A stretch of DNA of 64,000 bases from the NCBI RefSeq assembly GCF_054482525.1, contig NZ_CM137006.1; one strand, given 5' to 3'. Shown here one piece after another: positions 3,690-11,822 of this stretch (positions are counted from its first letter, which is position 1; each line of letters opens with the position of its first letter). The notes beneath the pieces were generated by a model that was not told where the DNA came from, made no database searches, and saw only the letters and a list, made by a program, of their open reading frames with translations. The position numbers and the translations under genes were made by a program.

Positions 3690-3830
3690 GATCGGTCGCT
3701 CGCGGCGCATCCGACACTGGCAGTGTTGCCTGATGCGCCGCTATTCGCGTCTTATCAGGCATATACCAGAGATAGCGAACCATAGGTCGGATAAGGCGCT
3801 CGCGCCGCATCCGACAAATGTGTTCAGCGA
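3690..3830. repeat. REP/BIME palindromic-unit cluster in the ruvB-znuB intergenic region
   Basis: Repeated GCCTGATGCGCCGC / GGTCGGATAAGGCGCTCGCGCCGCATCCGACA type imperfect palindromes typical of enterobacterial REP elements. Confidence 0.7.
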
Positions 3831-7840: not shown

Positions 7841-8812
7841 ATGGAAACGAAAAAAAATAATAGCGAATACATTCCTGAGTTTGATAAATCCTTTCGCCAC
7901 CCGCGCTACTGGGGAGCATGGCTGGGCGTAGCAGCGATGGCGGGTATCGCTTTAACGCCGCCAAAGTTTCGCGACCCCATTCTGGCACGGCTGGGACGTT
8001 TTGCCGGACGCCTGGGAAAAAGCTCACGCCGTCGTGCGTTAATCAATTTGTCGCTCTGCTTTCCAGAACGTAGTGAAGCTGAACGCGAAGCGATTGTTGA
8101 TGAGATGTTTGCCACCGCGCCGCAAGCGATGGCAATGATGGCTGAGTTGGCAATACGCGGGCCGGAGAAAATTCAGCCGCGCGTTGACTGGCAAGGGCTG
8201 GAGATTATCGAAGAGATGCGACGTAATAACGAGAAAGTGATCTTTCTGGTGCCGCACGGTTGGGCCGTCGATATTCCTGCCATGCTGATGGCCTCGCAAG
8301 GGCAGAAAATGGCAGCGATGTTCCATAATCAGGGCAACCCGGTTTTTGATTATGTCTGGAACACGGTGCGTCGTCGTTTTGGCGGTCGTCTGCATGCGAG
8401 AAATGATGGTATTAAACCATTCATCCAGTCGGTACGTCAGGGCTACTGGGGATATTATTTACCCGATCAGGATCATGGCCCAGAGCACAGCGAATTTGTT
8501 GATTTCTTTGCCACCTATAAAGCGACGTTGCCCGCGATTGGTCGTTTGATGAAAGTGTGTCGTGCGCGCGTTGTACCGCTGTTTCCGATTTATGATGGCA
8601 AGACGCATCGCCTGACGATTCAGGTGCGCCCACCGATGGATGATCTGTTAGAGGCGGATGACCATACGATTGCGCGGCGGATGAATGAAGAAGTCGAGAT
8701 TTTTGTTGGTCCGCGACCAGAACAATACACCTGGATATTAAAATTGCTGAAAACTCGCAAACCGGGCGAAATCCAACCGTACAAGCGCAAAGATCTTTAT
8801 CCCATCAAATAA
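7841..8812 (+). CDS. lpxM: Lipid A biosynthesis myristoyltransferase LpxM (MsbB)
   Basis: 323-aa [30 protein letters not shown]…; lauroyl/myristoyl acyltransferase family; matches LpxM. Confidence 0.9.
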
Positions 8813-8964
8813 AAAAAGCCTCTCGCGAGGAGAGGCTTCCGCCGTGTGATAAGTTCAAGTTTGCTTCAGAAGATTCGAAATCTGTTGAACTATCATTGAA
8901 CTGTAGGCCGGATGAGGCGTTTTGAACTGCACCCCAAATGTTGGACATAATCTGACATCTGAAG

Positions 8965-9495
8965 GTGCAGTTTATGAAACATTCATTTGAAGTAAAACTT
9001 GCCGCTGTAAATCACTACCTGGCTGGTCATGCAGGCATCATTTCTACGGCAAAACTCTTTCAACTTTCTCACACCAGCCTCTCACACTGGATTAATCTTT
9101 TTCTTCTTCACGGTCCTCGGGCACTGGATTGCAGACACAAGCGTAGCTATTCTCCTGAAGATAAACTTTGCGTGGTTCTTTATGCTCTCGGGCATTCTGA
9201 GTCTCTACCCCGGGTAGCTGCCCGGTTTAACATTCCCAGCCACAACACGGTTAAAAACTGGATAAAAGGCTACCGCAAATCTGGTAATGAGGCCTTTATC
9301 AGGCGCAGGAAGGAGAAAAGCATGACCCGTTCTGATGATACCCATGAAAACGAGGCAAACATGACGCCGGAAGAGATGAAGAATGAGCTGCGTTATCTTC
9401 GCGCAGAAAATGCATATCTGAAAGCCATGCAGGAGCATCTCCTGGAAAAAAAGCGCCAGGAGCTGGAGAAAAAACGAAAGTCATCCGGAGCCTGA
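8965..9495 (+). CDS. IS3-family transposase OrfA (HTH DNA-binding, leucine-zipper region)
   Basis: 176-aa ORF; N-terminal region resembles IS150-group OrfA; contains the slippery heptamer A_AAA_AAG at 9447-9453 in frame. Confidence 0.85.
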   Translation: MQFMKHSFEVKLAAVNHYLAGHAGIISTAKLFQLSHTSLSHWINLFLLHGPRALDCRHKRSYSPEDKLCVVLYALGHSESLPRVAARFNIPSHNTVKNWIKGYRKSGNEAFIRRRKEKSMTRSDDTHENEANMTPEEMKNELRYLRAENAYLKAMQEHLLEKKRQELEKKRKSSGA

Positions 9496-9599
9496 GGTGC
9501 GGACACTGCCAGTCTGACCTGTTAAAGGCTGCAGGGCTGGCCAGAAGCACGCTGTACTACCAGCTGTCACTGCAGAAGGCTAAGGACAAGTATGCTGAT

Positions 9600-10354
<755 letters not shown>

Positions 10355-10379
10355 GTTTTCGCCGCATCCGGCAACGTAC

Positions 10380-11822
10380 TTACTCTACCGTTAAAATACG
10401 CGTGGTATTAGTAGAACCCACGGTACTCATCACGTCGCCCTGGGTGACAATCACCAGGTCACCAGACATCAAGTAACCTTTATCGCGCAGCAGATTAACC
10501 GCTTCGCTGGCAGCTGCTACGCCGTCATTAGCGCTATCAAAGTGCACCGGCGTAACGCCGCGATAGAGAGCAGTCAGGTTCAGCGTACGTTCATGGCGTG
10601 ACATGGCGAAAATTGGCAGACCAGAGCTGATACGGGAGGTCATCAGCGCCGTACGACCCGATTCGGTCATGGTGATGATCGCCGTAACGCCTTTCAGGTG
10701 GTTAGCCGCGTACATTGCTGACATGGCGATAGCTTCTTCCACATTGTCGAACTGAACGTCCAGACGGTGTTTAGAAACGTTGATGCTCGGGATTTTTTCC
10801 GCACCCAGGCAAACGCGCGCCATGGCTGCAACAGTTTCTGAAGGATACTGACCAGCAGCAGTTTCTGCAGAAAGCATCACAGCGTCAGTACCATCCAGAA
10901 CGGCGTTTGCTACGTCCATGACTTCTGCACGCGTCGGCATCGGGTTAGTAATCATTGACTCCATCATCTGGGTCGCCGTGATTACTGCGCGGTTAAGCTG
11001 ACGCGCACGACGGATCAACGCTTTCTGAATGCCGACCAGTTCCGGGTCGCCAATTTCCACACCGAGGTCGCCACGTGCAACCATTACCACGTCAGAGGCG
11101 AGGATGATGTCATCCATTGCATCCTGGCTGCAAACGGCTTCCGCACGTTCAACCTTGGCAACAATTTTCGCATCACAGCCTGCATCGCGTGCCAGGCGAC
11201 GGGCATAGTTCAGATCTTCGCCGCAGCGTGGGAAGGAGACAGCCAGGTAATCTACGCCAATTAACGCCGCAGTCTTAATGTCTGCTTTGTCTTTTTCGGT
11301 CAGCGCTTCAGCCGACAAACCGCCGCCAAGTTTGTTGATACCTTTATTGTTGGAGAGGGGACCACCGACGGTCACTTCGGTGAACACTTTCATGCCCTGA
11401 ACTTCCAGTACTTTTAACTGAACGCGACCATCGTCCAGCAGCAGGATGTCACCAGGCACGACGTCAGCAGGCAGGCCTTTGTAGTCGATACCGACTTTTT
11501 CTTTGTCGCCTTCACCTTTACCCAGGTTGGCGTCGAGCAGGAATTTATCCCCAATATTGAGGAAAACTTTGCCTTCTTTAAAGGTGGATACACGGATTTT
11601 GGGCCCCTGGAGGTCACCCAGAATAGCCACATGACGCCCCAGTTTTGCGGCAATCTCACGAACTTTATCCGCGCGCATTTTGTGATCTTCAGGCGAGCCG
11701 TGAGAAAAGTTCATACGTACAACGTTTGCACCCGCTGCGATAACTTTTTCAAGGTTATTATCGCGATCTGTTGCTGGGCCTAACGTGGTAACGATTTTAG
11801 TTCTGCGAAGCCTTCTGGACAT
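10380..11822 (-). CDS. pykA: Pyruvate kinase II
   Basis: ATG (complement 11820-11822) gives [43 protein letters not shown]…; 480 aa; the track ORF is an in-frame upstream extension. Confidence 0.93.

Follow-up and report, generated by a model that had tools for sequence, protein, structure and literature searches.

Insertion sequences of the IS3 family are recognized by a length of about 1.2–1.55 kb, imperfect TG...CA terminal inverted repeats and a target duplication of 3–4 bp. For one of them, IS150, Vogele and colleagues reportedly described in 1991 a frameshift signal consisting of A_AAA_AAG and a 3' stem-loop (cited in PMC4066793). In the IS150 sequence folded here, a perfect 10-bp stem (GCCUUAGCUC/GAGCUAAGGC) begins 6 nt past the heptamer, with an energy of -18.5 kcal/mol (z = -4.0). 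IS1397 is said to have been described by Bachellier and colleagues in 1997, and Clement and colleagues reportedly found in 1999 that it is active and REP-specific. The dnaX and IS911 cassettes combine an SD-like GGAG about 10–12 nt upstream, A_AAA_AAG and a downstream hairpin, and the 3' element of IS911 is a three-way junction (PMC5009743). A_AAA_AAG itself ranks in the top three of -1 motifs in E. coli by efficiency, and 72% of the heptamers of IS1 and IS3 elements are either this motif or A_AAA_AAA (PMC4066793). SD-like stimulators are established for dnaX and are estimated for 56% of IS elements (PMC5009743; PMC5389563).

Here we analyzed an insertion sequence and its recoding site in a 64-kb stretch of DNA, the whole of which is called the window below. 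The A-rich site at 9447–9453 (Table 1) is very probably the signal for programmed -1 ribosomal frameshifting in IS1397, at which two Lys-tRNAs would slip in tandem on A_AAA_AAG with modest stimulation by an SD-like motif and a 3' hairpin. The frameshift site is an ordinary one, already known and annotated in RefSeq: the window copy agrees with the known element in its length of 1432 bp, at 99.86% identity, and in its transposase allele (P0001), its insertion in a REP and its RefSeq-annotated frameshift, and nothing substantive differs. IS150 has the same heptamer at the homologous codon and the same 0/-1 layout, and its OrfB is 52% identical to that of IS1397; in contrast, IS150 lacks the upstream GGAG that is present in IS1397, and IS1397 has no stem in the IS150 register, only an interrupted 38-nt hairpin. 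The arrangement of upstream GGAG, heptamer and downstream hairpin is like that of the dnaX and IS911 cassettes, although the elements of IS1397 are candidates, its hairpin is weaker than the dnaX and IS911 structures, and dnaX has no sequence homology to the IS1397 site. Beyond annotation the importance of the site is little; specialists may note, as a modest addition, that neither IS1397 nor its nearest relative has the covarying IS150-type stem-loop.

Table 1. Positions of IS1397, its expression signals and its insertion site in the window
Feature	Position	Strand	Remarks
IS1397, complete insertion sequence	8923..10354	+	1432 bp; 99.86% nucleotide identity to RefSeq-annotated IS1397 copy
Target-site duplication GTTT, left copy	8919..8922		4 bp; GTTT seen on both sides of the IS
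Target-site duplication GTTT, right copy	10355..10358		4 bp; GTTT seen on both sides of the IS
REP/palindromic unit, left half (GCCGGATGAGGCG)	8907..8919		Complementary to 10360-10372; halves contiguous in K-12
REP/palindromic unit, right half (CGCCGCATCCGGC)	10360..10372		Complementary to left half; halves contiguous in K-12
Left terminal inverted repeat, starts 5'-TG	8923..8947	+	25-nt arm, 84% complementary to right arm (repeat search)
Right terminal inverted repeat, ends CA-3'	10330..10354	+	25-nt arm, pairs with left arm (repeat search)
orfA, frame 0	8974..9495	+	173 aa; HTH domains and C-terminal leucine-heptad helix; ATG 8974, TGA 9493-9495
orfB frame, -1 relative to orfA	9387..10322	+	Preceded by TGA 9384-9386; TAA 10320-10322; Pfam HTH_21, rve, rve_2
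Small upstream hairpin CAGGAG-CAU-CUCCUG	9430..9444	+	-8.0 kcal/mol, z = -2.0; ends 1 nt before A-run
SD-like AGGAG, candidate 5' stimulator	9431..9435	+	11 nt 5' of heptamer; GGAG 9432-9435
Slippery heptamer A_AAA_AAG	9447..9453	+	X_XXY_YYZ register in orfA frame; within A7 run 9446-9452
Candidate 3' stimulatory hairpin, interrupted	9457..9494	+	38 nt; -12.4 kcal/mol; outer CAGG/CCUG, inner CUGGAGA/UC-AUCCGG; second A-run in loop
Second A-run, A6 (frame-0 AAA AAA)	9469..9474	+	No canonical heptamer; in-frame tetramers A_AAA 9471-9474, A_AAG 9477-9480
Catalytic D295 codon (WVTDITEF)	9855..9857	+	Invariant, 22-sequence alignment
Catalytic D355 codon (HSDQGWHY)	10035..10037	+	Invariant, 22-sequence alignment
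Catalytic E391 codon (MENFF)	10143..10145	+	35 residues between it and D355; invariant, 22-sequence alignment

Identity and insertion site of the element

The element is IS1397, a member of the IS3 family related to IS150. The window holds one copy, which differs at 2 of 1432 bases from a copy named IS1397 in RefSeq; by the ISfinder convention, more than 95% nucleotide identity means the same IS name. All 15 megablast matches listed are annotated as 'IS3-like element IS1397 family transposase', and the RefSeq record that holds the near-identical IS1397 gives its CDS as joined from two pieces with the note 'programmed frameshift'. The length, the TG...CA repeats (imperfect 25-nt arms, TGAACTGCACC... 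and ...GGGTTCAGTTCA), the 4-bp duplication and the overlapping 0/-1 reading frames are all as expected of an IS3-family element. The empty site of K-12 reads GGCGTTTTCGCC and holds one GTTT (longer context ...GGCCGGATGTGGCGTTTTCGCCGCATCCGGC...), and IS1397 interrupts the central loop of a REP, GCCGGATG(A/T)GGCG-TTTT-CGCCGCATCCGGC, between lpxM and pykA. REP or palindromic units are the known target of IS1397 (PMC1525189).

By megablast, IS1397 matches were found in 3,485 of the 5,426 complete E. coli genomes, at up to 40 places per genome, and four of the 5,426 carry it at the lpxM–pykA junction. This polymorphism in position and copy number, the few genomes with the insertion and the intact target duplication together argue for recent transposition, and mark the lpxM–pykA intergenic region as a recent, lineage-specific insertion site. 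The earlier note had held the element to be intact and potentially active. It is intact, with 1432 bp, both inverted repeats, the 4-bp target duplication and the transposase allele that is found on the largest number of contigs, and from its sequence the copy is potentially mobile.

Some minor features were seen near the 5' end of the element. The lpxM–pykA site is empty in K-12 and also in strain 118UI (locus L091, 590–640). A promoter-like TTGAAC-18 nt-CATAAT lies at 8922–8951 of the window, within the left inverted repeat and 5' of orfA; it was the sole match in the scanned region, where 1.3 are expected by chance. Directly 3' of the lpxM stop, at 8814–8840, there is a GC-rich hairpin with A/T runs that the scan called as a minus-strand terminator, and the sequence of this palindrome and its upstream A-run suggests that it could also serve lpxM. 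Since IS1397 is inserted downstream of this hairpin, it probably leaves lpxM expression undisturbed.

Reading frames, heptamer and fused transposase

At the site, the codons of orfA are CTG GAA AAA AAG CGC, and the codon register, read directly, places A_AAA_AAG in the orfA frame exactly where the earlier note had put it. Its description of the frames proved right as well: orfB is open from 9387, just past a TGA, and overlaps orfA by 109 nt (9387–9495) up to the orfA stop. A -1 slip gives a product of 449 aa (450 codons including the stop), in agreement with the OrfAB of about 450 aa that had been predicted, and a stop codon between the heptamer and the catalytic domain was looked for in the -1 frame and is absent. 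The proposal that programmed -1 frameshifting, the expression mode of the IS3 family, operates here accords with RefSeq, which marks identical DNA as a programmed frameshift.

Domain searches of the conceptual OrfAB found the Pfam domains HTH_28, HTH_21, rve (E = 3.8e-21) and rve_2, with HTH_28 in the orfA part. OrfAB scored 387.2 bits against the NCBIfam profile transpos_IS3 (cutoff 160); the match is single and collinear, runs through the junction and covers positions 1–369 of 369. OrfA alone covers positions 1–90 of the profile, in a match that stops at residue 161, one residue beyond the heptamer's AAG codon, and OrfB started from the GTG at 9600 (240 aa, catalytic core) covers positions 136–369; thus, only the frameshifted product spans the whole IS3 profile. 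The orfB frame has no ATG, GTG or TTG start before 9600. The fused product has the conserved DDE residues that the earlier note took as a test of its reading: D295, D355 and E391 are invariant and form a DD(35)E triad, and K398, 7 residues after E391, is likewise invariant in the alignment of the window protein with 21 diverse representatives. Past the site, the C-terminus of OrfA goes on as a charged helix (RQELEKKRK) and OrfAB switches to APGAGEK, which suggests, by analogy with IS911, that the leucine-heptad helix would end at the shift.

With 28 copies of AAAAAAG in the 64-kb window, both strands counted, the chance prior of an in-frame copy in the 109-nt overlap, which has about 36 codon positions, is roughly 0.008. 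As a separate observation on the window as a whole, these 28 occurrences compare with 16.0 +/- 3.8 expected from dinucleotide shuffles, and none of 100 shuffles reached 28.

Conservation of the slippery site among relatives

Relatives were taken from 80 loci on one-genome-per-species contigs and 8 plasmid loci, together with the IS150 of K-12; they are approximately 40–57% identical, with Bacillota and Pseudomonadota among their sources. Among 63 distinct relatives with the 0/-1 layout, 60, IS150 included, carry a heptamer in frame at the homologous codon position (A_AAA_AAG in 55 and A_AAA_AAA in 5), and because this position is the same in so many distinct relatives, the heptamer is far beyond chance. 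A_AAA_AAG is unchanged in the lineage with 97% identity to IS1397 (L093 and L094) and in L002, an IS on a plasmid of Pantoea sp. SO10 that is the closest distinct relative of IS1397 (the Pantoea element below). Between the heptamer and the second A-run, IS1397 and the Pantoea element differ by CCA->CCG and GCU->GCG in the -1 frame, both synonymous, and the same two substitutions in frame 0 are Gln->Arg and Leu->Arg (n = 2, a small sample).

Several loci depart from the common layout. In Pseudomonas asuensis (L011, L012, L014, L015), and likewise in Pseudomonas oryzihabitans and Pseudomonas rhizoryzae (L051, L054), all about 40% identical, a single continuous frame of about 1.4 kb holds both the orfA-like and the orfB-like part; these are apparently naturally fused transposases for which a frameshift is unneeded. 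Two other Pseudomonas loci (L072, 489–573; L083, 1929–2028) are without an in-frame heptamer and read CCU AAA GGA G at the homologous spot.

Relatives above about 53% identity, sought in a 50%-identity cluster library for covariation of the IS1397 hairpin, were not found there, the next full-length cluster being at 43%. Two proteins, P0143 and P0173, were considered as closer relatives and rejected, as they are error-ridden copies of IS1397 itself: fragments of both read ...LLEKSARSWRKTKVI..., as though each A-run were one base short, the C-terminus of P0143 is garbled in a way that resembles further frame errors, and homopolymer errors in long-read assemblies are probably the cause. A locus in the E. 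coli representative genome (L043) was likewise rejected as a naturally fused IS1397. It is a degenerate copy (1450–2370 and 3745–3794) with an internal deletion of 193 bp, in which IS positions 469–661, including the frameshift region, are missing, and IS positions 1116–1165 match about 1.4 kb further downstream, as if there were an insertion there.

Stimulatory elements

Most of the relatives of IS1397 share a strong 3' element. We defined an IS150-type stem as an uninterrupted helix of at least 7 bp that starts 3–7 nt after the heptamer and closes on the E-L-R codons of orfB, and such a helix (7–16 bp, perfect, core GCCUUAG/CUAAGGC) was found in 54 of the 60 relatives with a heptamer, IS150 among them. 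In a set of 49 distinct sequences, pairing is seen in 85.6% of cells and compensatory changes in 9 of the 15 pairs; among 500 shuffles, not one matched the percentage paired, the compensatory cells or the covariation score, and slid registers reached at most 44%, with the caveat that the register of the 3' arm was taken from each sequence's own best helix. A helix search after the heptamer found no IS150-type stem in IS1397, in the Pantoea element or in a small Pseudomonas group. In IS1397 no uninterrupted helix is longer than 5 bp, and GAGCUG and UGAGGU, which stand opposite each other in the homologous register, do not pair.

The earlier note had proposed folding the downstream RNA for a stem-loop or pseudoknot, and the outcome is mixed: a modest 38-nt hairpin is present, but neither a strong stem-loop of the IS150 type nor a pseudoknot was found. 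The hairpin begins 4 nt past the heptamer, where 4–10 nt is expected of a stimulatory structure, and passes the empirical criteria given by Sharma et al. 2014. Its ddG/nt is 0.133; IS150, treated in the same way, has 0.187, and the weakest of their 20 reference elements has 0.09. Compared to shuffles it is not significant (z = -1.9; 7 of 200 fold as well). In the 97% lineage, one difference within it converts a U.G pair to U-A; in the Pantoea element the hairpin is not kept. Longer folds that include the site (87, 90 and 136 nt) had z values between -0.4 and -1.3, but such lengths are uninformative, as even the proven IS150 stem goes unrecovered (z = -0.75 at 90 nt). A pseudoknot helix of at least 5 bp between the hairpin loop and the 85 nt downstream was not found, and an Rfam scan of 8800–10500 at E <= 1 returned no family.

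On the 5' side, the GGAG lies 12 nt from the motif's second base, within the published SD rule of 6–17 nt, and GGAG is equally distant from the heptamer in 39 of 61 sequences. The Glu codon at this place is GAG in 45 of 60 sequences against 23.8 expected from their own codon usage, a comparison that is indicative only and not a true P value, the sequences being related. The small hairpin upstream of the A-run is kept in the Pantoea element as a 5-bp hairpin, and by repeat search and folding CCAGGAG at 9456–9462 is a possible alternative partner for its 3' arm. The three segments CAGGAG, CUCCUGG and CCAGGAG (9430–9462) are mutually complementary, flank the heptamer and are largely conserved in Pantoea; in their alternative pairings they could form either the 5' hairpin or a hairpin that encloses the slippery site.

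Based on these comparisons, IS1397 and its closest relative appear to use a different set of stimulators from most IS150-like relatives. A fuller scenario can be drawn in which the IS1397/Pantoea subclade lost the ancestral, covarying IS150-type stem-loop and rewired its control, with CAGGAG (9430–9435), CUCCUGG (9439–9445) and CCAGGAG (9456–9462) forming both a weaker 3' hairpin and an SD-like stimulator open to masking by the 5' hairpin, and with part of OrfAB arising perhaps when RNA polymerase slips in the lengthened A7 run. We regard this scenario as speculative and rather unlikely.

Mechanism and alternative explanations

Tandem slippage at the heptamer, the reading that we prefer, would proceed as follows. 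Most ribosomes would read CTG GAA AAA AAG CGC straight through to the UGA at 9493–9495 and make the 173-aa OrfA as the major product. A minority would pause with Lys-tRNAs on AAA in the P site and AAG in the A site, both tRNAs would move back by one base onto AAA AAA, and decoding would restart at GCG (9453–9455) in the orfB frame, yielding the 449-aa OrfAB as a minor product with the junction ...LLEKK/APGAGEK.... Both the slip and its stimulation are deduced from sequence, the likely stimulators being the modest hairpin at 9457–9494 and, as in dnaX and IS911, the GGAG that precedes the heptamer by 11 nt. The frameshift would set the ratio of OrfA to OrfAB, and transposition may thereby be kept low.

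The same EKKAPGAG fusion would result if OrfAB were made mainly by transcriptional slippage, that is, from mRNA with an eighth A added in the A7 run, perhaps aided by the nascent-RNA hairpin at 9430–9444. Seven A's are sufficient in IS1447, another IS3-family element, and are the minimum reported there (PMC6211511), and the run in IS1397 adjoins a GC-rich hairpin of -8.0 kcal/mol that is kept in the Pantoea element; moreover, this subclade is among the few relatives without the 3' stem-loop, and slippage stimulated by a hairpin has a precedent in a Roseiflexus IS630 element (PMC5009743). However, the Roseiflexus mechanism is a forward realignment that should delete a base and so lead to the +1 frame, not to orfB, and efficient slippage by E. 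coli RNA polymerase is reported for runs of 9 (PMC5009743). Most relatives have T followed by only A6, too short for efficient slippage, and the exact X_XXY_YYZ register and the terminal G, both irrelevant to a polymerase, are found in IS1397, in the Pantoea element and in 55 relatives. We thus consider transcriptional slippage as the main route improbable.

A productive shift further downstream is more improbable still. The second A-rich run (GAGAAAAAACGAAAG) noted earlier does exist, although it lies at 9466–9480 rather than 9465–9479, and in frame 0 it includes AAA AAA CGA AAG (9469–9480), where a single tRNA might slip on A_AAA or A_AAG, both in frame and within the overlap, to give ...EKKRQELEKK/TKVIR.... 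Given a strong stimulator, no tetramer does better in E. coli than A_AAG, but unstimulated tetramers barely exceed background (PMC4066793), and the only candidate hairpin has this stretch in its loop. The products of the first and second sites score alike against the IS3 profile (387.2 and 386.0 bits), which has no power to separate them. Neither tetramer is part of an in-register heptamer, the motif of the relatives aligns with the first site, and the substitutions between the sites are silent in the -1 frame; in addition, both the 97% lineage (L093, L094) and Pantoea have AAAAAG in place of the A6, whereas the first heptamer is invariant. Being out of register and not conserved, the second run is probably irrelevant to the shift, and its tetramers would be minor shift sites at most. 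The least probable of the readings considered, with a very slim chance of being right, is that recoding is absent in this copy, which would make only OrfA and a separately initiated OrfB and retain the heptamer as a relic. The 240-aa frame from the GTG at 9600 does span the catalytic core, but such an OrfB would be without profile positions 91–135 and the N-terminal DNA-binding domains, and no earlier start was seen in its frame. IS3-family transposition needs OrfAB, as in IS911 and IS150, and the polymorphism and intact target duplication described above, which argue for recent transposition, also speak against a copy without recoding.

Annotation of the junction and protein variants

Gene callers split the IS1397 transposase unless the frameshift is modelled. 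In RefSeq it is modelled: join(8974..9454,9454..10322) reproduces exactly the protein P0001, named IS1397 family transposase by NCBI, which is encoded by the window copy and, found on 465 contigs, is the commonest allele by contig count. The RefSeq join (9454/9454) lies one base 3' of the mechanistic site and gives KK-P-PGAG at the junction, as against KK-A-PGAG for tandem slippage. The join EKK-P-PGAG was seen in 112 of the 120 listed protein clusters (P0001–P0120), and it looks like a systematic annotation artefact of one residue.

One further variant of the IS1397 transposase, P0052 (448 aa), was found on 2 contigs, the longest of 5.2 Mb. It reads ...HLLEKAPGAG..., a sequence consistent with the loss of two A's, which would fuse orfA and orfB constitutively; P0052 may be genuine, a hyperactive allele, or it may reflect a homopolymer error in sequencing.
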